From: an uncultured virus (IMG/VR IMGVR_UViG_3300011187_000006)
Taxonomy: Duplodnaviria; Heunggongvirae; Uroviricota; Caudoviricetes
IMG/VR virus record: IMGVR_UViG_3300011187_000006
Coordinates: 1-64,000 of that record
Direction: 5' to 3' (one strand)
DNA: 64,000 nucleotides
Shown: in pieces, positions 6,842 through 59,681 of the stretch
Position numbering within the stretch: the stretch's first letter is position 1
Layout of the letters: each line of letters begins with the position of its first letter
The notes under the pieces: generated by a model
The model's input: only the letters and a program-made list of their open reading frames with translations
What the model was told of the DNA's origin: nothing
Databases searched by the model: none
Translations under genes and position numbers: made by a program

Positions 6842-7207
6842 ATGGGAAAAAGAAACAAAAGATTTATAAAAACAATGGCAATGTTTATAAAAGAAAGTGC
6901 TGAAGTGGACGAAACTTATATAGAGACAATTGAATTTGATGATGAAACATTAACTATACACAAAATTGCGGATAGTCCATTAAAAACACAGTTTTATGCT
7001 AATACATTGGAAGGAGAATCTTACATTGATATAAGTAAGATATTATCTGATAACATGTTAATAGATGCTGTGTGGATAGAGAAAGGTGGTGATGAAGAAA
7101 GAATAGCTGATAAAATAGATTGTTTGTCTAAAACAGACAAAACTACTAAGGCTGGTTTTAAAACTTTCATAATGTATAAAATGAACTACCCATTAGCTAA
7201 AGACTAA
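6842..7207 (+). CDS. Hypothetical protein whose 3' end is altered by the IS605 insertion
   Basis: Last codons (MNYPLAKD) come from the IS right end; removing 7181-8959 restores ...IMYKINK-stop. Confidence 0.55.
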   Translation: MGKRNKRFIKTMAMFIKESAEVDETYIETIEFDDETLTIHKIADSPLKTQFYANTLEGESYIDISKILSDNMLIDAVWIEKGGDEERIADKIDCLSKTDKTTKAGFKTFIMYKMNYPLAKD

Positions 7208-8382
7208 TGTGTTTCGGGTTTCACAGAGTGTGCTTCTTCACAGAAGTCTGATTTACTCTCCACCTTTGTATTGGACAGTCCCTGCCCAAATATTTTTAAA
7301 CCTTCTTTTAGAATGTTTTTACTTGCATTTATGTCCCTATCATGAGTTTCACCACAAGGTGAGCAAGTCCATTCTCTGTGTGAAAGTTTTAATCCTTGAT
7401 TTATCCAACCACAACTATTACAAGTTTTTGATGATGGAAAAAATCTACCTATTTTAACAAGTTCTTTTCCATACCAATTACACTTATATTGAAGTAATGT
7501 AACAAAATTACCCCAACTTACATCAGCAATATGTTTAGATAACTTATGATTTTTAATCATACCCTTTACATTCAAATCTTCAACACTTATTAAATCATAA
7601 GATTCGACAAGTTCTCTACTAACTTTGTGTAAGGTATCCAATCTACAACTTGCTATCTTTTCGTGAATTTTAGCAACTTTGAGTCTTTGTTTTTTAAACC
7701 CATTACTACCTTTTTGTTTACGAGATAAATGCTGTTGTACTTTCTTTAATTCTCTAGCATACTTTTTAGTATATTTATTATTTTTATATTTTTTATTATC
7801 TGAGGTAATCACAAAATCTTTGATACCTAAATCAATACCCACTTTTTTACCAGTTTTAGGTAATTGTTCGATTTCTTGTTCGGTGAAAATAGAAACATAA
7901 TATTTACCTGTTGGTGTTTTAGTAATGCTCATTTTACCAATTTTGCCTTTAATTTTTCTCCTATCTAATTTAACTTTAATACCACCTTTAAATTTAGGTA
8001 TAATTATTTTATTTTCTTCTAATCTACCAAACTGAGGAATAGTGAATGTGTTTTTGTTTTTTCTTGATTTAAAATTAGGAAACTGAGCATTACCACGAAA
8101 AAAATTAACATAAGAAGTATCTAAACACCTTAAAGCAAATTGTATAGTCTGGCTATTAACTTCTTTTAACCATTTATAATCTTCATCTTTCTTTAATTCT
8201 GTTAAAGATTTTGCTTGAACATAATAGTTATCTGATTTCTTATCTTTTTGATATTGTTCTTTACGCTCATTAAGAAAATGGTTATATATGAATCTTGAAC
8301 ACCCAAAATGTTTAGACAACAAGATTTCTTGCTCTTTATTTGGGCAAATTCTAAATTCATATGACTTATTAACGACTTTCAT
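7204..8382 (-). CDS. tnpB: RNA-guided endonuclease TnpB
   Basis: RuvC motifs GIDLG, VEDL and DRDINA; Zn finger CxxC...CxxC; HTH N-terminus. Confidence 0.93.
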   Translation of the reverse strand: MKVVNKSYEFRICPNKEQEILLSKHFGCSRFIYNHFLNERKEQYQKDKKSDNYYVQAKSLTELKKDEDYKWLKEVNSQTIQFALRCLDTSYVNFFRGNAQFPNFKSRKNKNTFTIPQFGRLEENKIIIPKFKGGIKVKLDRRKIKGKIGKMSITKTPTGKYYVSIFTEQEIEQLPKTGKKVGIDLGIKDFVITSDNKKYKNNKYTKKYARELKKVQQHLSRKQKGSNGFKKQRLKVAKIHEKIASCRLDTLHKVSRELVESYDLISVEDLNVKGMIKNHKLSKHIADVSWGNFVTLLQYKCNWYGKELVKIGRFFPSSKTCNSCGWINQGLKLSHREWTCSPCGETHDRDINASKNILKEGLKIFGQGLSNTKVESKSDFCEEAHSVKPETH

Positions 8383-14684: not shown

Positions 14685-15218
14685 ATGATAATTACAAGCT
14701 ATTCATTGTTCATCAATGAGAAAAACGAAACCAAAGAAGAAAAAATATATGAATATGGATGTGCTATGTTATACTTCAATGTTAAGAACTGGGAAGAAAT
14801 AACTAGCTTTATAGACAAAGAGGATATAGGTGAAGATGGTTTGGAAGATGAGCCTCACTTAACACTTCTATTTGGACTTCATAAAGATGAAGTTAGCATA
14901 GATGACGTGAAAAAGGCATTTGAAGGTTATACTTCTATTGATATAGAATTAGAGTCAGTTGATTTATTTGAGAATGATAAGTTTGATGTTGTTAAATTCA
15001 AAGTTAAAAAAACTAAAGAATTGTTAGATATTAATGAAAAATTATCTATATTGCCACATACTACAGACTTCCCTGATTATAATCCACATATCACAATAGC
15101 TTATGTGAAGAAAGGTAAGGGTAAAAAGTATGTTGTTGATAATTACAATGCTACTCTATCATCTAAAAAAGTTATGTACTCGGCAGATGAAAAGACTATG
15201 TTTAAACTAGAAGAATAA
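14685..15218 (+). CDS. 2H phosphoesterase, Acb1 (T4 57B)-like putative anti-CBASS nuclease
   Basis: Two HxT motifs (PHLTL; DFPDYNPHITIAY). Confidence 0.7.
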   Translation: MIITSYSLFINEKNETKEEKIYEYGCAMLYFNVKNWEEITSFIDKEDIGEDGLEDEPHLTLLFGLHKDEVSIDDVKKAFEGYTSIDIELESVDLFENDKFDVVKFKVKKTKELLDINEKLSILPHTTDFPDYNPHITIAYVKKGKGKKYVVDNYNATLSSKKVMYSADEKTMFKLEE

Positions 15219-20992: not shown

Positions 20993-21697
20993 ATGAGAAT
21001 TAAAATTAGTTTTACTCCAAACACTGAACCATTAATTAATAACCAGAAAATAGTAAATGGATTTATACATAAATGTCTAGGCAAGAACAACAAATATCAT
21101 AACTCTGTATCAGATTATACAATATCAAACCTAGAAGGTGGTGTGTTTATAAATGGTGGACGAGATGTAAATTTTCCAAATGGTGGCTTTATTGTTGTGA
21201 GTTCGTTGAAAGAAGATTTTATCGGTAAAGTCATAAATGGATTACATTTAGATGGTAATCTAGGAAAGGGTATGAAAGTAAATGGTATTGATTACATATC
21301 TGGAAATTTTTATAGTGGATATAATCATTTTAAAACACTTAGGAATGGTATTCTTCTAAAGACAAAATTAGGATTTTTAACATTAAAAGATAGTGGATTT
21401 GAAAAAGCTTTAGAAGAACAAACTAGATCCAAGTTTTCTAAGATAAATAAAGGATTAAGTTTCAAAGACTTCAAAATTGAAATTGGTCATAATAACAAAT
21501 CAAACAGAACTATAAATGTTTATGTAAATAACATCAGAAACAAATCTAGCTATTGTCCACTCACTATATATGGTGATAGAAGTCTTATTGAACATATATA
21601 TAATTATGGATTGGGTAATAGCACTGGTTCGGGGTTTGGGACTCTAATTAGAACTGATAATATTAGCAAATACCATCCAAAAGAAGAGCTATTTTAG
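20993..21697 (+). CDS. cas6: CRISPR RNA endoribonuclease Cas6
   Basis: C-terminal Gly loop GLGNSTGSGFG; adjacent to the array. Confidence 0.92.
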   Translation: MRIKISFTPNTEPLINNQKIVNGFIHKCLGKNNKYHNSVSDYTISNLEGGVFINGGRDVNFPNGGFIVVSSLKEDFIGKVINGLHLDGNLGKGMKVNGIDYISGNFYSGYNHFKTLRNGILLKTKLGFLTLKDSGFEKALEEQTRSKFSKINKGLSFKDFKIEIGHNNKSNRTINVYVNNIRNKSSYCPLTIYGDRSLIEHIYNYGLGNSTGSGFGTLIRTDNISKYHPKEELF

Positions 21698-21757: not shown

Positions 21758-22520
21758 GATAGTAATCATATTAATACGCAAGGTAATCACAACGAACTTG
21801 TAATTCCGAACACGGAAAGCCTAGATAGTAATCATATTAATACGCAAGGTAATCACAACTATTCTCTACATTAGTATGCCCCAAAATACGATAGTAATCA
21901 TATTAATACGCAAGGTAATCACAACACTTATAGCTAAACGAATTATACCGTTTTTGATAGTAATCATATTAATACGCAAGGTAATCACAACACTTACAAC
22001 GCAAGCTAGAAAATCTTGCAAGATAGTAATCATATTAATACGCAAGGTAATCACAACTCGATAATTAATATTTTGAATGAGCGTAAAGATAGTAATCATA
22101 TTAATACGCAAGGTAATCACAACCATATAACCTTTAGTCGCTTGTTAATCATAGATAGTAATCATATTAATACGCAAGGTAATCACAACGATAGCGACTC
22201 TGATGCCTACGTAAAGAACGATAGTAATCATATTAATACGCAAGGTAATCACAACAGATACTCTCAAGTTAATAACTGAATTAGTGATAGTAATCATATT
22301 AATACACAAGGTAATCACAACCACAAATCAAAGTTCCAACAACTCGATTATGATAGTAATCATATTAATACGCAAGGTAATCACAACCCATAAAAATTTG
22401 TAGCAAAAGACCTCCTAGATAGTAATCATATTAATACGTAAGGTAATCACAACGGTAGCTTAATAAGTAGCTTCATCATTCTTTGATAGTAATCATATTA
22501 ATACGTAAGGTAATTATCTA
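21758..22520 (+). CRISPR. CRISPR array 1: 12 repeats (GATAGTAATCATATTAATACGCAAGGTAATCACAAC, 36 nt), 11 spacers of 30-31 nt
   Basis: 66-nt periodicity read directly; first 8 repeats identical, last one degenerate. Confidence 0.97.
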
Positions 22521-22533
22521 CATAGATAAAAAT

Positions 22534-22546
22534 AGTTCTTTGACAT
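22534..22546 (+). promoter_or_regulatory. boxA-like antitermination motif between the two arrays
   Basis: AGTTCTTTGACAT resembles the boxA consensus (GYTCTTTAACA / GTTCTTTGA). Confidence 0.4.
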
Positions 22547-22618: not shown

Positions 22619-23511
22619 TATAGAAATCATATTAATACATAGGGTAATCACAACCTTAACACAAATATCTACCAAAAGGCTTAGATAGTGATCATATTAA
22701 TACGTAAGGTAATCACAACGAGATGAGAAGAAATGTTTCTGAGGTGATTGATAGTAATCATATTAATACGTAAGGTAATCTCAACTGGTAATTATTTTAT
22801 AAAGCATGGTAGCATGATAGTAATCATATTAACACGTAAGGTAATCACAACAATATAGATGATGTTCTGCCTCCTACTTTAGATAGTAATCATATTAATA
22901 CATAAGGTAATCACAACTAAATACACGTTTAAACTGTCTGAATATGAAATATTAATCATATTAATACGCAAGGTAATCACAACGAATAGTACTTTAGATG
23001 TTTCTTAACTTCTGATAGTAATCATATTAATACGCAAGGTAATCACAACATCCAATCAACTACTAAAAAAAGTCCATTTGATAGTAATCATATTAATACA
23101 CAAGGTAATCACGACACAATTTCAGCCATTATCATAGCTTCTGTTGATGGTGATCATATTAATACGCAAGGTAATCACAACTACTCTTCTCCCAGGAGTA
23201 AAAGTTATGTAGATAGTAATCATATTAATACGTAAGGTAATCACAACAGAAAGTTTATTAATCGTCCAAAAAACTTTGATAGTAATCATATTAATACATA
23301 AGGTAATCACAACCAAAAATAGGGTGAAAGTAATACTAAGCTAGATAGTAATCATATTAATACGTAAGGTAATCACAACTACGAAGTAGACTTAACACCC
23401 CTTTTTGGAGATAGTAACCATATTAATACATAAGGTAATCAAAACCGACCTTCGCAACAATCGAAGCTAATTATTAGTAGTAATCATATTAATACATAAG
23501 GTAATCATAAA
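22619..23511 (+). CRISPR. CRISPR array 2: 14 more variable repeats, 13 spacers of 29-30 nt
   Basis: Same repeat family with point variants; terminal repeat degenerate. Confidence 0.97.
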
Positions 23512-23565
23512 TATATATAGCAATTGTTTTTTTTTATTAGTATATTCGCAGTCTAAAATATTAAT

Positions 23566-25815
23566 ATGATAGTAGCAAAGTCGAATAATGGTAATAATAT
23601 ATCATTAGAGGAACATTCAAAGGAAGTCAGTGATAAGGCTGTGAAAGAATTAAAAAAATTACCAAATGTGAAAGAACACTTAATGGTAAACATAAAGGTA
23701 GCTTCTCTATTGCACGATATTGGGAAGTCAACAGACTCTTTCCAAAAACATATAAATGGAGAGAAAGTAGATAAGAAACATAAAAACAAGTACTTACATC
23801 AACAAGTTTCATGGGCTTTTGTAGATACTTATTTCGATTATGTAAATTATTTCAAAGACAACGAAATAAAGAATTGTGTTGGTAAAAACATAATACCCAA
23901 TCTAATATATTGGCATCATGGTATCTTGGACAATGAGGGGATTTGTGCCAAAGATGTTTTAGGTAGTATACCATCTAGTGATATAGATACCATGAAGAAA
24001 GAGCTTGGTAAACTAATTGACAGTAAGTATATCATTAATAATCCTAAAAAAAATAACAATACTAGACCTGATTACTTTTTATTTAACAAAGATAGGAAAG
24101 AAAAAACAGACAACCTCAACCGAGATATAACATTAATTAGAATGATATTAGTTTATTCTGATAGAACTATATCTGGTGCTGATGATATAAATCTTAAAAA
24201 AGCAAACAAGTTCTTATTTGAAGTTTGTCACTTCCCTGACGACAAAAGATTCAAAGAGCAAAAAAAGATTATAAATGATATTAAGGATGAGGATAAAACT
24301 ACAATAATTAAAGCACCTACAGGATTTGGTAAAACTATGTTAGGTCTTATGTGGAGTGAGAAGTCAGATAAAAAGTTATTGTGGGTATGTCCTAGAAATA
24401 ATATAGCAATATCAACATACTATTCTATTGTAAAAGAATTAGAAGACTCTGAAAAGAAAGTAAATATAGAACTAAGGTATGCTGGGAAGGTTCAAAAGTC
24501 AAGCTTTAATGGAGAAGGAAAAGAAGCAGATATCATTATTACAAACATTGATTATTATCTAAGACCATATAGTAATGCTGGTAAAGACATGTCTCTTATG
24601 TATTTTATAATACATAGTGATGTTATATTTGATGAGTATCATGAAAATGTAACTGATTTACCTATATTTAGCCTCTTTATAAACCTTATGAGAGTTAGAA
24701 ACATAAAGACAGATTCTAGAACTTTGTTATTAAGTGCTACACCCATCGATATAAGCCATTTGTGGACTACTAATTCAAACAAAACTAAGATTATACCCAA
24801 TGATAAAAATCACTTACCTTCTATACATAATAAAAAATATAATGTTAATATTGTAAATAAGATACCTAATACAATATCAAACAATGAGATATTATTTGTT
24901 AATTCAATAAAAGAATCACAAGAAATTGCAAAGAAATTAACAAATGCTATATTAATACACTCTAATTTCATAGAAGGTGATAAATCAAAGATGTTTGATA
25001 AATTGTTAAATGATTATGGTAAGGATTCTAAAACAACTAACAGAAAGCCTTACATATCAACACTTATTTTACAAGCGGCTCTTGATATATCTTTTAATAA
25101 TCTATATGAGATACCATTATCCCCAGAATCCACATTACAACGGATAGGAAGATGTAACAGATGGGGTCGGAATAAAACTGCTACTATAAATATTATAGAC
25201 ACTTGTCCCACCACATCAAATGGCTATGTCGTTGATATAAAATATAATGAGAGTTTAAGAAAACTTTGGGTTGATCATTTAAAATTATTGAGTGGTAGTT
25301 CCTTAACACTTGACGAGATATATGTACATTATAATGATTTTAATATTACAAATAATACTGAAATAGTAGATTACATAGATGACAGTCTTCATCAAAGTAA
25401 TGAAAGTTCGAGTAACAATATATACCCAGTCAAGCATTATAACACAACACCACCAAGTTATATGTCGGCAAATTCTAACCCACTTAGAAGCAACGGTTCA
25501 GAAGTATTTTTTATAGTACAGGACGTTAAAGGCAAATGGGTTGGTCCATTCACCAAGAGCATGTACGATAGTTTTGATAAAGATTTTAATGAAGGTGGTA
25601 CCGCCATTTCGGTAGGTAAGATGATAAAAATAATAAAAAATATATCATCACCTACTTCTGGGTATAAATATAATTATGGTATAAATAGTAATAAACATTA
25701 TAAAAATATTAAAATAGACGATCTTAGAAGAAAAGCTAGGTTAGATAAATCACCCTATATAGCTATTAATTTCTCTTACGACTATAGGCTAGGGATAATT
25801 AAAAAGATTATTTAA
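23566..25815 (+). CDS. cas3: Cas3 HD nuclease-SF2 helicase
   Basis: EEH, HDIGK, WHHG and SD HD motifs; APTGFGKT, DEYH, SATP and QRIGRCNR helicase motifs. Confidence 0.95.
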   Translation: MIVAKSNNGNNISLEEHSKEVSDKAVKELKKLPNVKEHLMVNIKVASLLHDIGKSTDSFQKHINGEKVDKKHKNKYLHQQVSWAFVDTYFDYVNYFKDNEIKNCVGKNIIPNLIYWHHGILDNEGICAKDVLGSIPSSDIDTMKKELGKLIDSKYIINNPKKNNNTRPDYFLFNKDRKEKTDNLNRDITLIRMILVYSDRTISGADDINLKKANKFLFEVCHFPDDKRFKEQKKIINDIKDEDKTTIIKAPTGFGKTMLGLMWSEKSDKKLLWVCPRNNIAISTYYSIVKELEDSEKKVNIELRYAGKVQKSSFNGEGKEADIIITNIDYYLRPYSNAGKDMSLMYFIIHSDVIFDEYHENVTDLPIFSLFINLMRVRNIKTDSRTLLLSATPIDISHLWTTNSNKTKIIPNDKNHLPSIHNKKYNVNIVNKIPNTISNNEILFVNSIKESQEIAKKLTNAILIHSNFIEGDKSKMFDKLLNDYGKDSKTTNRKPYISTLILQAALDISFNNLYEIPLSPESTLQRIGRCNRWGRNKTATINIIDTCPTTSNGYVVDIKYNESLRKLWVDHLKLLSGSSLTLDEIYVHYNDFNITNNTEIVDYIDDSLHQSNESSSNNIYPVKHYNTTPPSYMSANSNPLRSNGSEVFFIVQDVKGKWVGPFTKSMYDSFDKDFNEGGTAISVGKMIKIIKNISSPTSGYKYNYGINSNKHYKNIKIDDLRRKARLDKSPYIAINFSYDYRLGIIKKII

Positions 25816-35957: not shown

Positions 35958-36031
35958 TCGAGAAGACAGGAATCGAACCTGCTAACTGATGCCTCCAATG
36001 CACCCGTGCTTATAACCTTAGTCACTTCTCG
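35958..36031 (-). tRNA. tRNA-Pro(TGG)
   Basis: CGAGAAG/CTTCTCG acceptor; GGTGC-ATTGGAG-GCATC. Confidence 0.78.
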
Positions 36032-40345: not shown

Positions 40346-40426
40346 TACCCTAGATAGGACTCGAACCTATATTTTCAGCTTCCAATTACCCTTAATTGTT
40401 TAGAAGACAATCGGGACTACTAAGGC
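40346..40426 (-). tRNA. Non-canonical tRNA-Arg(TCT) lacking a D arm
   Basis: GCCTTAG/CTAGGGT acceptor; ATTGT-CTTCTAA-ACAAT only ~8 nt after it; long variable region; normal T arm. Confidence 0.7.
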
Positions 40427-40532: not shown

Positions 40533-41273
40533 TTATATTTTACTATGTATTTCTCTATGACAATTAGAACATAATAAAATACATTTATCAACTTCTTTTT
40601 TTAACCTTTCAAGTGACCAAGACTTTCCGCCGATACTAAAATCTTTTTCATTAGGATCTAAATGATGAAATTCTAAAGCACTTATACATTTAGAATATCC
40701 ACATTTTTCACATTTACCACCTTTATATTCTAGTAGTTCGACTTTCTTTCTTTTTCTCCAAGATACTACATATATTGCTTTTTCTTTCTTTATTTCATCT
40801 TTTGTCATTTTTTTTCTTTTTTTAAGTGTTACATATTTTCGTATAGTACGAAAAGAATGTCCCATTTCTTTACTAACTTTCTTAATACTACCCAACTTAT
40901 CATATTGTGTTCTTATTTCATCTATCTCTGTTTCTGATAATTTACCATATTTACCACAATTTACCAAATCGTGCATTCTACATATTTTAGATATGGACTT
41001 TATTGAAATATTTGTTTTTTCTTTTATATCAGAATAACTTAATTTATTTTTCCTTAATTTTATTACCTCACCAATATCATAGTTTTCTATTAAAAATGAT
41101 TTATCTTTAAACTGTTTCTTATTTTTTTCAATTACATTTTTCAATTTTATTTTATTATTAGATTTTATTTTAGAGCAATGATAAGATACTGTTGATTTAG
41201 AACAGTTTAATTCTTCACATATTGTTTTATAGCTATGTCCCATTTTTCTTAGTTCTAATATTCTTTCTTTCAT
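40533..41273 (-). CDS. HNH endonuclease with N-terminal HTH repeats, inserted in the tRNA cluster
   Basis: CEKCGY...LEFHH...LCSNCHREIH. Confidence 0.88.
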   Translation of the reverse strand: MKERILELRKMGHSYKTICEELNCSKSTVSYHCSKIKSNNKIKLKNVIEKNKKQFKDKSFLIENYDIGEVIKLRKNKLSYSDIKEKTNISIKSISKICRMHDLVNCGKYGKLSETEIDEIRTQYDKLGSIKKVSKEMGHSFRTIRKYVTLKKRKKMTKDEIKKEKAIYVVSWRKRKKVELLEYKGGKCEKCGYSKCISALEFHHLDPNEKDFSIGGKSWSLERLKKEVDKCILLCSNCHREIHSKI

Positions 41274-41344
41274 ACTATTTATTTTTTATAGTATATATAA
41301 ATATTAGAACTCACCCCTAAACATACATGTCATTTATCTAAAAG

Positions 41345-41426
41345 TCGGCACAGTAGGACTCGAACCTACGTTTTCAACTTACCAACTACAGTTCTCCAAG
41401 GTATCAGCTTGGGCTGGTATGTGCCG
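41345..41426 (-). tRNA. Non-canonical tRNA-Ile(GAT) lacking a D arm
   Basis: CGGCACA/TGTGCCG acceptor; CCAAG-CTGATAC-CTTGG 7 nt after it; long variable region; normal T arm. Confidence 0.7.
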
Positions 41427-41434
41427 ATTATTTG

Positions 41435-44025: not shown

Positions 44026-44577
44026 ATGACAACTATGAAAACTAAAAAAGAAACAAAGCTAAGAAAGGCTCTATTATTTATGATAGAGGCACACGATGGA
44101 CAGTTTAGAAAATTTTCTGGCAAAGAATATGCATGGCACCCAATTGCAGTAAGCAAAATAGTTAGGGAGGTCAAGGTGAGTAAAAATAAGGAGCTAATTT
44201 GTATTGCGGCATTACTTCACGACACTGTTGAAGATTGTGATGTTACTATTAGTAATATAGAAGAAGAGTTTGGAAAAATGGTCAGTAGTATAGTAGAAGA
44301 ACTTACATCTGATAATAACAAAATAGAGAAGGTAGGTAAATCACAGTATTTATTAAATAAAATGCTAAATATGACTAGTTATGCTCTTGTTATAAAGTTA
44401 GCTGATAGATTACACAATTGCTCAGATTTAGAACAAGGTAGTGATAAATTTGTCAGCAAGTATGTGACAGAAACTAGATTTATTTTAGATGGTTTAGTAT
44501 CAAGGAATCTATCACAAACACACAATGAATTGATGTCTTTGATAGATTCTAAGATAAGTCCATTTGAGAATAACTAG
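44026..44577 (+). CDS. Small alarmone hydrolase, (p)ppGpp HD-domain (Mesh1/SpoT-like)
   Basis: AHDGQFRK, YAWHP, LLHDTVED and KLADRLHN motifs. Confidence 0.85.
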   Translation: MTTMKTKKETKLRKALLFMIEAHDGQFRKFSGKEYAWHPIAVSKIVREVKVSKNKELICIAALLHDTVEDCDVTISNIEEEFGKMVSSIVEELTSDNNKIEKVGKSQYLLNKMLNMTSYALVIKLADRLHNCSDLEQGSDKFVSKYVTETRFILDGLVSRNLSQTHNELMSLIDSKISPFENN

Positions 44578-49139: not shown

Positions 49140-50375
49140 TTAACTATCAACAAATTCTTGTTTGATTATTTTTATTATCTTCTCAATAGTCACATCCTCT
49201 AAATCTGTCATATTTACAAGTTCACTAAAACCATAAGATAGTAATGATTTAGCAGTATCTATACCAGCTTTTTTAAATTCATTTATTACCCATAAATCAA
49301 CTTCATCAGAAAATTCCATAAGATCTATATCTTCCTCTGTAGCTTGCTCATCATTTATAAGATTTATTTCTAGACCAGTAAGTAAGCTAGTTAATCTTAT
49401 ATTAGAACCTTTCTTACCAATAGCCTTACCAATATCTTCACCATTTAAATGAACGTCAGCTTTACCATCTTCTACCTTTATAAATTTAACAACGGCTGGT
49501 TTTAACGACCTAGTTATATATAAATCCATATTATTTGTGTAGCTTATGATATCTATACTCTCACCATTTAGCTCTCTAGTAACTGCCATTATTCGACTTC
49601 CTCTACTACCAACACAAGTTCCAACAGGATCAATTCTATCATCATATGTTTCCACTGCTACCTTAGCTTTAATACCAGGTACTCTAACTATGTTCTTTAT
49701 ATTTATTAGACCATCGAATATTTCAGGTATTTCTTGTTCCATTATTCTTTCTAGAAACTTACTTGATGTTCTTGATGCAATAATGTATGGCTTATTGTTT
49801 CTAATTTCAGCTTCTTCTACCACAAATGATATTGTATCACCTTTTCTGTAAAACTCACCAGGTATCTGATTATCTTTTGGTAAACAAATTTCAATACCCT
49901 CATCATCTAGTAATATAACCATATTTCTTTTTATGTGATGGACTTCGGCATTGAAAATATATCCAATCATATCTTCAAACTTCTCTATTGTTGATTTATT
50001 TTCGTAGTCTTTTATTCTAGCCTTTAGATTCTGTCTTAAACTTAATATAGATCTTCTTCCTAATTCTGATATTTTGAATTCTTGTGGATATTCTTCCCCT
50101 ATTTCAAAATCTGACTCCACCTTAAGAACTTCTGAAATTTCTATTTCAGTATTGTGGTTTTCAACCTCGCCATCTTGTACAACGATTTTGTTTTGCCATA
50201 TTTCTAAATCTCCGTTATCTGGGTTTAGAATTATATCAAAGTTTTCATCTGTATCATATTTTTTTCTAAACTCAAATCTAAAAACAGAGTCTAGGATTTC
50301 CATTATCTCTATTTTATTAATCATTTTGTCTGACTTAAGCTCAGTAAATGAATCTATAATTGATGTGTTATTCAT
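49140..50375 (-). CDS. nusA: Transcription termination/antitermination factor NusA
   Basis: S1 and KH domains: EIPEIFDG, RIDPVGTCVGSRGSRI and AIGKKGSNIRL. Confidence 0.95.
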   Translation of the reverse strand: MNNTSIIDSFTELKSDKMINKIEIMEILDSVFRFEFRKKYDTDENFDIILNPDNGDLEIWQNKIVVQDGEVENHNTEIEISEVLKVESDFEIGEEYPQEFKISELGRRSILSLRQNLKARIKDYENKSTIEKFEDMIGYIFNAEVHHIKRNMVILLDDEGIEICLPKDNQIPGEFYRKGDTISFVVEEAEIRNNKPYIIASRTSSKFLERIMEQEIPEIFDGLINIKNIVRVPGIKAKVAVETYDDRIDPVGTCVGSRGSRIMAVTRELNGESIDIISYTNNMDLYITRSLKPAVVKFIKVEDGKADVHLNGEDIGKAIGKKGSNIRLTSLLTGLEINLINDEQATEEDIDLMEFSDEVDLWVINEFKKAGIDTAKSLLSYGFSELVNMTDLEDVTIEKIIKIIKQEFVDS

Positions 50376-52762: not shown

Positions 52763-52836
52763 AGCAGGTAATCGGGATCAAACCGATTCTATTCTAGCTT
52801 GGAAGGCTAGTGCACCATCACTTATGCGTTACCTGC
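52763..52836 (-). tRNA. tRNA-Gly(TCC)
   Basis: CTAGC-CTTCCAA-GCTAG. Confidence 0.8.
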
Positions 52837-52984: not shown

Positions 52985-53059
52985 TTACATAACAATTCCC
53001 AGCCAATGAGTTTTCCCTTTGCCTATCGCTATTATTGCTATGTTATTAATTGTTCTCAT
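52985..53059 (-). CDS. Leader peptide MRTINNIAIIAIGKGKTHWLGIVM
   Basis: 24-aa ORF; ATA GCA ATA ATA GCG ATA GGC AAA GGG block. Confidence 0.8.
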   Translation of the reverse strand: MRTINNIAIIAIGKGKTHWLGIVM

Positions 53060-53325: not shown

Positions 53326-53578
53326 AATAATTTATTTTTGTAATTCAATTTCTTTTAATATCCTTTTCGGATAAAAAAACGAAAAATGTGTCTTAGCTTG
53401 CTCAACATTGTAGGCTTTAAATACACATTTATGTATTTTTTTACCAGTCTTATAAACATATACACACTTAAAATCTTGTATTGTGTTTTTTTCCATTTAA
53501 AAGCTTTTTAAAATTAAATAATAGGCAAATATAAGCATTATATTATTATAATCCTATTTTAAACAATATTTAAATTAG

Positions 53579-53651
53579 TACTCCGTGGGAGAATTGAACT
53601 CCCGTTACCAAGTTGAAAGCCTGGGGTCCTAGTCCACTAGACGAACGGAGC
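53579..53651 (-). tRNA. tRNA-Glu(TTC)
   Basis: CCAGG-CTTTCAA-CTTGG. Confidence 0.88.
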
Positions 53652-53661
53652 ATGTACTAAG

Positions 53662-53744
53662 TGGGCGTAGTGGGACTCGAACCCACAATACCTTTCGGAA
53701 TCGGTTTTACAGACCGACATGACTACCTGTGCCATATTACCCCC
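53662..53744 (-). tRNA. tRNA-Tyr(GTA)
   Basis: TCGGT-CTGTAAA-ACCGA; variable arm CC-GAAA-GG. Confidence 0.82.
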
Positions 53745-53757
53745 ATATTTTTAAAAC

Positions 53758-53794
53758 AAAAAACCCAGTCTATATTACTAGACTGGGTTTTTTT
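53758..53794 (-). terminator. Attenuator terminator upstream of the Tyr/Glu tRNAs
   Basis: AAACCCAGTCTA...TAGACTGGGTTTTTT. Confidence 0.88.
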
Positions 53795-53810
53795 TATACT
53801 ATAATTTAAT

Positions 53811-53894
53811 TTACATTATAGACATCAAAAGACTAGCCGAGCGTTTTCGTTCAGATTCTTCATAATAATATTCTATGTTAGTAAAAGTATTCAT
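53811..53894 (-). CDS. Leader peptide MNTFTNIEYYYEESERKRSASLLMSIM
   Basis: 27-aa ORF; GAA TAT TAT TAT GAA GAA TCT GAA block. Confidence 0.82.
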   Translation of the reverse strand: MNTFTNIEYYYEESERKRSASLLMSIM

Positions 53895-53914
53895 TTTATT
53901 TATTTATTTATTTG

Positions 53915-53987
53915 TAGCGGGAGTTGGACTCGAACCAACGACCTCTAGGTTATGAGCCTAGCGAGCTACCTACTGCTCTACCCCGCG
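53915..53987 (-). tRNA. tRNA-Met(CAT), initiator-like
   Basis: CGCGGGG start with unpaired position 1:72; CTAGG-CTCATAA-CCTAG. Confidence 0.88.
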
Positions 53988-54122
53988 ATTTATGTTTATA
54001 TACTATATATTAAAAAAGTTTTGTCTCTTTTGATATTTATTATACAAATATATGAAATGTATTAATTTAACACACTATTTTTAAGATATAATTAACAAAG
54101 ATATTATTTTAATATATATGGT

Positions 54123-59075: not shown

Positions 59076-59681
59076 TTAAGAATACATTTTATCTATTTTA
59101 TCGAAATTGTTTTCACATATGTCAATTAAAAGCATACGACCATTTCTAATCTGTGATTTTATAGTGGACAAGTTTTTACCAAGATCACTAGAGATGTCTT
59201 TATAAGACATCTTTCTAATCTCTCTCATTTCAATAACTGTTCTATAAGGCTCTTTTAACCTATATATCGAATCTTTCATTAACTTAGCCTTTTTATTAAT
59301 AACAATATACTTAGACTCATCTTCATCTTCATCATTTGATATGAAGCTTTTCATTGTTGTACCATCATTGTCATATTCAACATCGAGTGATATAGACTTT
59401 TTGCTTTTTTTCACATCTTGATAAGATAAATTTTTAGCTATTGTAAATAACCATGTAGAAAATTGTGCCTTTGATTTATCATAAAGTTCTATTTTATTAA
59501 ATGCTACTATGAAAGAGTCAGTAGATATATCCTCTGCCTTTTTTCTATCATTACATATCTTAGATGTGAAGTATATTAGTTTAGGATAATACTTTTTATA
59601 TAGAAATGTAAAATCTTTACCAGTTCTTTCTTTAAATAATTTCTCTTTTTCCGAGAAATAGCTTTCTTGTTTTATTTCCAT
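59076..59681 (-). CDS. ECF-type RNA polymerase sigma factor
   Basis: AEDI...FSTWLFTIAKN (region 2); SYKDIS...TIKSQIRNGR (region 4). Confidence 0.9.
   Translation of the reverse strand: MEIKQESYFSEKEKLFKERTGKDFTFLYKKYYPKLIYFTSKICNDRKKAEDISTDSFIVAFNKIELYDKSKAQFSTWLFTIAKNLSYQDVKKSKKSISLDVEYDNDGTTMKSFISNDEDEDESKYIVINKKAKLMKDSIYRLKEPYRTVIEMREIRKMSYKDISSDLGKNLSTIKSQIRNGRMLLIDICENNFDKIDKMYS

Follow-up and report, generated by a model that had tools for sequence, protein, structure and literature searches.

In the attenuators of amino-acid operons in Escherichia coli and Salmonella (trpL, hisL, pheL, leuL, thrL, and ilvL), a short open reading frame (ORF) with a run of regulatory codons is followed directly by an intrinsic terminator, and a segment of the RNA pairs either with the codon region or with the 5' arm of the terminator; a stalled ribosome is the signal. 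The pheM-pheST attenuator of Escherichia coli likewise places a gene of the translation apparatus under a leader peptide, a gene that serves the sensed codon. T-box riboswitches (RF00230) also use a terminator/antiterminator switch to report the state of a specific tRNA, but in them the uncharged tRNA is itself bound, by a specifier codon and the T-box sequence, and translation plays no part. Control of tRNA genes is taken to lie in promoters, growth-rate control, and processing. To our knowledge, all described leader-peptide attenuators regulate genes for amino-acid biosynthesis or for aminoacyl-tRNA synthetases, and a literature search, from whose coverage subscription journals were largely missing, found no leader-peptide attenuation of tRNA genes. 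The locus described here lies in the first 64 kb (the window) of the 78.7-kb uncultured virus record IMGVR_UViG_3300011187_000006. In it, a leader ORF and a terminator ahead of the genes for tRNA-Tyr and tRNA-Glu probably form a ribosome-stall (leader-peptide) transcription attenuator, which would feed back on the supply of these tRNAs.

Such a phage element differs from the amino-acid operon attenuators in that it regulates tRNAs instead of biosynthetic enzymes, and thus its sensor would read the activity of its own product. Between two and seven amino acids are represented in the codons of a phage leader, in line with the mixed tRNA set behind it; the Tyr/Glu module has a tRNA gene between promoter and leader; and for many relatives, folding predicts an antiterminator even when the leader is not translated. 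The pheM-pheST attenuator, in contrast, belongs to a cell and not a virus, has a protein (PheRS) as its target, and responds to a single amino acid. Unlike a T-box, the phage element is an ORF, and no RF00230 match is present in the window at the gathering score or at an E-value up to 1. An Rfam scan of the window returns only tRNAs at the gathering score, with no similarity to leader families. At an E-value up to 1 it adds just sub-threshold matches driven by the terminator hairpin; the best leader match is to Thr_leader, on the opposite strand, and scores 23.6 bits where the cut-off is 55.

A preliminary description of this DNA had proposed the order promoter, tRNA-Met, leader, terminator, and Tyr/Glu tRNAs, and ARAGORN together with a reading of the sequence confirms this order on the minus strand (Table 1), where all tRNA genes of the window lie (ARAGORN). 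Its identification of the tRNAs behind the terminator as Tyr(GTA) and Glu(TTC) agrees with ARAGORN, and its statement that seven of eight consecutive codons are TAT or GAA holds when leader codons 8 to 15 are read directly. Two motifs stand upstream of tRNA-Met. One, TATATTTG, we take to be the Bacteroidota-type -7 promoter element TAnnTTTG; at 16 of its 38 sites in the record, an ORF of 60 or more codons has its ATG no more than 80 nucleotides (nt) downstream, compared with 19% of random positions, and the box is likewise found upstream of leaders 1 and 2 of the window. For the other, TTAATATATA, such an ATG follows within 45 nt at 18 of 32 sites (11% of random positions), and four further sites lie ahead of the three other leaders of the window and of the tRNA-Met of the Tyr/Glu module. 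Neither motif occurs in the 13-nt gap between terminator and tRNA-Tyr, and thus the Tyr and Glu tRNAs would be transcribed solely by readthrough of the hairpin. The spacer between tRNA-Met and leader is just 19 to 20 nt in the window and in one relative (L020), which implies that the leader is co-transcribed with tRNA-Met. Outside this leader, six of the 11 AAATAAATAAA sites in the record are found 11 to 21 nt ahead of the ATG of ORFs of 113 to 368 codons, and two of these genes share an identical AAATAAATAAAATGAA start with the leader ATG.

The run of Tyr and Glu codons is difficult to attribute to chance. Tyr and Glu make up 12.0% of the residues in the 49 long ORFs of the record, and a 26-codon peptide would contain a stretch with at least seven of eight with a probability of 3.4e-5. 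None of 16,740 eight-codon windows in the long ORFs reaches this count, and only one of 414 small ORFs in the 78.7-kb record does, namely this leader. The idea that the leader is a chance ORF is ruled out by geometry and codon content, which are conserved across all modules. The 164 nt from tRNA-Met to tRNA-Tyr fold at -36.3 kcal/mol, compared with -19.1±3.5 for shuffled sequences (z = -4.9), and none of 200 shuffles is as stable.

Similar modules were collected from stretches of IMG/VR that match the pattern of the terminator stem (at least 120), from the tRNA clusters of the phage LR745206.1, and from LR756502.1. The collection comprises at least 32 distinct modules (28 plus four placed by coordinates) and two more in LR756502.1. 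In every module, the distance from the leader stop to the terminator stem is 21 to 30 nt; here it is 23 nt. At least nine distinct leaders have a Tyr/Glu run (the window, L001, L025, L077, L098, L102, L023, L020, and L070), with runs such as YYYEAYEE, SYESYYEE, AYYYEGE, YYYEAEG, and SYYYEE, and a mixed leader in LR756502.1 has one as well. All of them precede Glu and Tyr tRNAs, although in L098 just two Glu tRNAs fit within the 630-nt locus. Within the run, synonymous changes are seen between near-identical leaders (TAT to TAC between L020 and L070, GAA to GAG between L102 and L023), and the frame is always kept. These changes, the steady stop-to-terminator distance, and the gene-like context of the leader ATG point to a genuine coding frame.

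The preliminary description had also placed tRNA-Met outside the gate, and its position in relatives bears this out. A tRNA-Met is present within 350 nt upstream in seven of the eight assessable Tyr/Glu modules (the window, L001, L020, L070, L098, L102, and L023); none is found within this distance in L025, and L077, whose locus starts too close, is left out of the count. Being upstream of the terminator, tRNA-Met would escape this control. The gene in the window has a 5' CGCGGGG, a C1xU72 mismatch, and two G-C pairs beside the anticodon loop, which we take to be initiator features. The four upstream tRNA-Mets that were inspected (the window, L001, L020, and L102) begin with (C/T)G(C/T)GGGG and look initiator-like. 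It is reasonable that a sensor of elongation stalls, unable to report on initiator tRNA, would leave this gene ungated, and the conserved position supports this rationale. In L001, L102, L023, L098, and L025, a TATATTTG- or TATCTTTG-like box is found directly upstream of the leader, between tRNA-Met and leader where a tRNA-Met is present, suggesting that these leaders may have their own promoter.

Across the family, the content of the leader tracks the tRNA set behind it. In 23 modules, 179 leader codons match the amino acids of the downstream tRNAs. When the tRNA sets are shuffled among these modules, the mean is 106±10.7 and the maximum 151, and none of 20,000 permutations reaches 179; this comparison errs on the cautious side, since types recur among the modules and some of the tRNA chains are truncated at locus ends or by inserted genes. 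A QQQQQ run precedes three Gln tRNAs, and the leader HKNFSKSHKWFS precedes His, Phe, Trp, Lys, and Ser tRNAs. LR745206.1 has a syntenic region, in which the promoter motif and an initiator-like tRNA-Met are followed by the leader MNTITNIASYESYYEEGNLVRRNNYVVM, a terminator, and Glu and Tyr tRNAs; in the adjoining module, the leader MKNLNNISIAVIGNGAGAIREWLSYGI and its terminator precede Ile, Gly, Met, and Gly tRNAs. In this phage, 53 of 61 Rfam tRNA hits stand behind such modules, the other eight being two at 419.8-420.3 kb (the tRNA-Met region), a tRNA-Met at 364870, a Met, a Cys, an Arg, and a Gly/Ala pair. Each of the window's four tRNA clusters likewise has a leader, a terminator, and matching tRNAs. 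In the leader run of cluster 3, the Ile codons are ATA, which is read by the anticodon TAT.

Predicted folds of the RNA suggest how the leader could act on the terminator. The terminator hairpin has a predicted energy of -14.6 kcal/mol for its core and -21.9 with the flanking A:U pairs. In an RNAalifold analysis of nine Tyr/Glu leaders aligned with MAFFT, it is the sole consensus structure, with compensatory changes in two of 11 pairs. This alignment lost the register of region C (GGCUAGUCUUUU, the segment within the end of the leader that can pair in two ways), and the antiterminator was judged by alignment-free duplex energies instead. In the minimum free energy fold with no ribosome (-14.4 kcal/mol), codons 7 to 14 pair with region C and the terminator 5' arm is free. 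When a 30-nt ribosome mask is placed with its A site at codons 9 to 15, region C is freed and pairs with the 5' arm (-11.8 kcal/mol including the enclosed spacer hairpin) through GCUAG:CUAGU, CU:AG, and UUU:AAA; the pairing named in the preliminary description, GCUAG with CUAGU and CU with AG, thus appears upon masking. Moving the mask to the stop codon releases the 5' arm again. In the partition function, the number of 5'-arm bases paired upstream, of nine, is 2.4 with no ribosome, 5.2 with a ribosome at codons 9 to 15, and 2.3 with one at the stop codon.

The pairing between leader and arm is also seen across the family. Among 32 modules, the 3' part of the leader pairs with its own terminator 5' arm at a mean of -12.65 kcal/mol, compared with -8.97 for non-cognate arms, and no permutation out of 20,000 attains the cognate mean. 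Region C and the variable part of the arm co-vary, as in GUCUGAC:GUCAGAC (L001/L077), CAGUCUUAU:GUGAGACUG, CCAGUCC:GGACUGG, and, in this module, AGUCUAGU:GCUAGUCU. Compensatory changes can be seen, such as GUCAGAC:GUCUGAC in L001/L077 where this module has GCUAG:CUAGU. In a partition-function test, 15 of 28 modules sequester the arm better than at least 95% of shuffles.

Together, these features suggest the following sequence of events. Transcription would start upstream of tRNA-Met, which would be made whenever the promoter fires. A ribosome would load on the A/U-rich spacer behind tRNA-Met and translate the 27-codon leader. With ample Tyr-tRNA and Glu-tRNA, it would pass codons 8 to 15 and leave; region C would then pair again with the Tyr/Glu codon stretch or be covered by the ribosome, the terminator hairpin would form, and transcription would stop 13 nt before tRNA-Tyr. 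If decoding of TAT or GAA were slow, the ribosome would stall on codons 8 to 15 and leave region C free to pair with the loop-proximal part of the terminator 5' arm. The hairpin would fail, and RNA polymerase would read into tRNA-Tyr and tRNA-Glu. The outcome would be negative feedback on the supply of exactly these two tRNAs. Stalling might be triggered by a mismatch in codon usage, by demand late in infection, by starvation for amino acids, or by the loss of tRNAs of the host. We infer leader translation, ribosome-polymerase coupling, stall-dependent readthrough, and the physiological trigger from this arrangement, and comparative evidence supports the gating interpretation of the preliminary description in each of its architectural points (the codon/tRNA match, the placement of tRNA-Met, the promoterless gap, and an antiterminator weaker than in the other three modules).

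Several observations weigh against this attenuation model. As the preliminary description had already noted, the antiterminator of the Tyr/Glu module is weaker than those of the other three clusters (RNAduplex energies of -6.6 versus -12.0, -17.3, and -14.4 kcal/mol), and it is the weakest of all 32, the others ranging from -8.5 to -17.3. Five of 31 non-cognate arms pair with this leader better than its own arm does, and 23% of shuffled spacers sequester the 5' arm equally well. The terminator, at -14.6 or -21.9 kcal/mol, outcompetes the antiterminator at -11.8 thermodynamically, and thus the switch would have to be kinetic; in classical attenuators, too, the terminator is thermodynamically favored over the antiterminator. 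For the family as a whole, the ribosome-mask model fails to yield a clean switch. When the ribosome is placed at the stop codon, most of the 5' arm (at least 6 nt) is still paired in 10 of 28 modules; the arm is paired even without a ribosome in most modules, unlike trp-type logic; and in four of 28 the chosen stall position masks region C itself, the fixed 30-nt mask being a crude one. Rather than following strict trp-type logic, the family may terminate transcription only when a ribosome has translated the whole leader. A simple consensus terminator scan lists the cluster-3 hairpin and misses that of the Tyr/Glu module, likely since pairing of the A-tract with the U-tract lengthens the stem so that it takes up part of the T tail. 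The leader has no Shine-Dalgarno sequence and stands behind a tRNA on the same transcript, where ribosome loading is assumed. Finally, tRNA-Tyr is absent from the Rfam RF00005 matches at the gathering score, and it scores 33.9 bits with the tRNA-Sec model, for which the cut-off is 47.

Some of these points would be accommodated if the gate depended on translation without any RNA antiterminator, ribosome position acting directly or via factors, or translation acting on precursor processing or stability. Termination efficiency could, for instance, be set by the phage NusA or by a ribosome that finishes 23 nt ahead of the hairpin. The weakness of this module's antiterminator, its 23% of equally good shuffles, the narrow range of stop-to-terminator distances in all modules, and a NusA gene 3.4 kb away are all consistent with such a gate. 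Terminator efficiency is reported to depend on distance from the end of the upstream gene (PMC4824070), and this too would fit. It is nonetheless an unlikely explanation: the leaders of 32 modules are specifically complementary to their own 5' arms, which would be needless if no RNA pairing were involved.

A different possibility is that the ORF at this locus is no longer a sensor, and that an ordinary leaky terminator ends the tRNA-Met unit, with constant low readthrough supplying the Tyr and Glu tRNAs. In its favor, no other module of the family has so weak an antiterminator, and tRNA genes behind a terminator with no leader do occur, as in L130, where tRNA-Met is found about 30 nt behind the terminator of an ordinary gene. 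Yet the Tyr/Glu run is intact, which is improbable by chance; the ORF, its spacing, and the terminator are conserved in nine Tyr/Glu-type relatives; and the folds predicted for the three states are more clear-cut in this module than in most others. The region hardly varies among related lake metagenome contigs. Contigs from four DNA metagenome runs differ at just two places over 501 nt (the leader change I26M and an A-tract shorter by one A), which are uninformative on structure or coding. Loss of the sensor is thus quite improbable. Still harder to credit is that the small ORFs encode functional peptides, or that the element is a protein-independent RNA of the T-box type, with the codon match a by-product. 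The peptides do share similar N-termini, M-(K/N/T)-(T/N)-x-(T/N)-N-I, but they vary freely apart from the run that tracks the tRNA set. Moreover, no Rfam family, including the T-box, is found at threshold, and with codons for up to seven amino acids in a leader, a single tRNA-binding specifier would be insufficient. Of these explanations, ribosome-stall attenuation remains the probable one.

Table 1. Features of the Tyr/Glu module, the other tRNA clusters, and leaders in relatives; positions refer to the window unless a locus is named.
Feature	Position	Strand	Basis or remark
TATATTTG box (TAnnTTTG), upstream candidate promoter	54045..54052	-	motif scan
TTAATATATA motif, phage gene-start or promoter motif, 16 nt before tRNA-Met	54004..54013	-	motif scan
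tRNA-Met(CAT), upstream of terminator, outside gate	53914..53987	-	ARAGORN; Rfam RF00005, 62.7 bits
A/U-rich 19-nt spacer AAATAAATAAATAAATAAA, translation-start context of leader	53895..53913	-	sequence
Leader ORF MNTFTNIEYYYEESERKRSASLLMSIM, 27 codons + TAA	53811..53894	-	ORF reading; conserved in relatives
Regulatory codons 8-15: GAA TAT TAT TAT GAA GAA TCT GAA	53850..53873	-	
Region C	53827..53838	-	folding; partner is regulatory codons or terminator 5' arm
Spacer hairpin (53824-53815 with 53805-53795), contains stop codon, enclosed by antiterminator helix	53795..53824	-	folding
Terminator hairpin core, CCCAGUCUA / loop GUAAUA / UAGACUGGG	53764..53787	-	folding, consensus fold
Terminator U-tract, U6, then G + U4	53758..53763	-	
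tRNA-Tyr(GTA), first gated gene, 13 nt past U-tract	53661..53744	-	ARAGORN
tRNA-Glu(TTC), second gated gene	53578..53651	-	ARAGORN; Rfam, 55.6 bits
Cluster 1 leader MKNLNLNIVVNPQPQVDIDQDSD... (NPQPQVDIDQDSD)			terminator, then Asp, Gln, Asp, Gln, Pro
Cluster 2 leader MKNLNLNTNRNLTLNVVNIMLCN... (NLNLNTNRNLTLNVVNIMLC)			Leu, Asn; beyond inserted HNH gene Leu, Val, Cys, Thr, Leu, Met
Cluster 3 leader MRTINNIAIIAIGKGKTHWLGIVM (run IAIIAIGKG)			terminator, then Ile(TAT), Gly(TCC), Ala(TGC)
Relative, leader MKMITQQQQQNN...			Gln x3
Relative, leader MTTTQQIQQQQINQTD	L128 1439-1555		Gln x3; internal gate in LR745206.1
Relative, internal gate MKTINNTSKSSSRSSSMSEIRLYS	L126 1931-2058		Arg/Ser; in LR745206.1
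Relative, leader MTTITTYTGKQYPQGKQTPTG...			Pro, Gln, Tyr, Thr
Relative, leader MTTNSTHKNFSKSHKWFSNQSF...			His, Phe, His, Phe, Trp, Lys x4, Arg, Ser
Relative, leader MKTINNTSKSSSRSSS...			Arg, Ser
Relative, leader MNTLIYIGYIAEGGYEAG...			Glu x3, Tyr x2, Gly x3, Ile
Odd tRNA-like gene in cluster 1	35958-36031	-	Rfam RF00005, 30-44 bits for the three
Odd tRNA-like gene in cluster 2	40346-40426	-	
Odd tRNA-like gene in cluster 3	52763-52836	-	
Fourth tRNA-like element, acceptor-like stem	~41340-41433	-	relaxed ARAGORN settings only
Helix-turn-helix + HNH endonuclease ORF	40533-41273	-	inserted mid-cluster 2
Ile/Ala/Gly leader	52985-53059	-	
NusA (NusA_N + KH domains), full	49140-50375	-	3.4 kb from attenuator modules
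Sigma-70-family factor ORF	59076-59681	-	
Cas6-like ORF	20993-21697		
CRISPR-like array	21759-22541		66-nt period
CRISPR-like array	22621-23532		66-nt period
Cas3-like ORF	23566-25815		
TnpB/IS605 OrfB-like ORF	7204-8382	-	
2H-phosphoesterase or Acb1-like ORF	14685-15218	+	possibly anti-CBASS
HD_4 (RelA/SpoT-type hydrolase-like) ORF	44026-44577	+	

The other clusters show further variation on the same design. Two clusters of LR745206.1 contain internal second gates, each with its own terminator, and thus sub-sets of one tRNA array would be gated separately. In cluster 2 of the window, an ORF with helix-turn-helix and HNH endonuclease domains splits the tRNAs behind one leader, and HNH-like ORFs also interrupt tRNA clusters in L055. 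The Ile/Ala/Gly leaders (one in the window and those of L001, L016, L054, L074, and L102) favor codons that are rare in the long ORFs of the phage, where GCG makes up 3% of Ala codons, and GGC and GGG make up 7% and 9% of Gly codons; for Ile they use ATA, matching tRNA-Ile(TAT). Such rare codons may raise the sensitivity of the sensor. The sequence AACATA at leader codons 6 and 7 is widely conserved, and in many Ile/Gly leaders it is complementary to a UAUGUU near the stop codon.

Clusters 1 to 3 each include one odd tRNA-like gene that is missed by ARAGORN, and a fourth element has an acceptor-like stem. Run on these four at relaxed settings, ARAGORN returns nothing for three and a doubtful call for one. 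Read by eye, their putative anticodon loops contain TGG, TCT, and TCC. Similar tRNA-like elements, likewise undetected, follow the Tyr/Glu terminator in L001, L023, L025, and L098.

The G+C content is 28.7%, and CheckV gives a completeness estimate of 11% for the record. In the phage collection, its only relatives beyond tRNA similarity are LR745206.1, LR756502.1, and LR756504.1, uncultured phages of 635-642 kb, and the window is thus taken to be a fragment of a huge phage. It encodes Cas6-like and Cas3-like proteins, ClpB, ribonucleotide reductase, gp32, an NAD-dependent ligase, a sigma-70-family factor, and NusA. The last two fit the use of host core RNA polymerase, which would respond to intrinsic terminators; more speculatively, the phage NusA could tune hairpin-dependent pausing or termination at the modules. 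A scan for consensus sigma-70 promoters finds nine sites, compared with 10±3 in shuffled sequences, so this consensus is uninformative for the phage. The TTAATATATA motif is often found just 4 to 8 nt ahead of gene ATGs (for example at window positions 2093, 6385, 8397, 33717, 36516, 39413, and 54109), and it precedes the leaders of clusters 1 and 2 in the same way, by 6 to 7 nt. This spacing suggests a phage promoter that gives leaderless or near-leaderless mRNAs. An alternative genetic code is unneeded, as the long ORFs are open under table 11 and the leader stops at TAA. Two CRISPR-like arrays with a period of 66 nt (a repeat of about 34 nt and a spacer of about 32 nt) are flanked by the Cas6-like and Cas3-like ORFs, and the phage therefore has a CRISPR-Cas of its own. 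TnpB-like, 2H-phosphoesterase or Acb1-like, and HD_4 ORFs are also present (Table 1).

If ribosome-stall attenuation does operate here, it would constitute a new layer of control of the translation apparatus, in which the ribosome reports a shortage of a tRNA and switches on the gene for that tRNA. It would also help to account for the way in which huge phages handle their tRNA arrays of 20 to 60 genes. The modules are compact (about 140 nt) and codon-programmable, with many natural variants, and could be put to use as codon-specific sensors of decoding capacity. The finding bears on why phages carry tRNAs, whether to compensate for codon usage, to replace host tRNAs that have been degraded, or to escape anticodon nucleases. 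More tentatively, the phage might possibly divide nearly all of its tRNA genes among about five to seven operons grouped by amino acid, each with a codon-matched stall sensor and with the initiator tRNA left ungated, which together would serve as a detector of host tRNA loss and as a controller of both counter-defense and translation supply. In that case, loss of tRNA-Tyr or tRNA-Glu to host defense nucleases or to decay induced by the phage would make the ribosome stall on the leader, replacement tRNAs would be deployed on demand, and the gate would be more than an economy measure.

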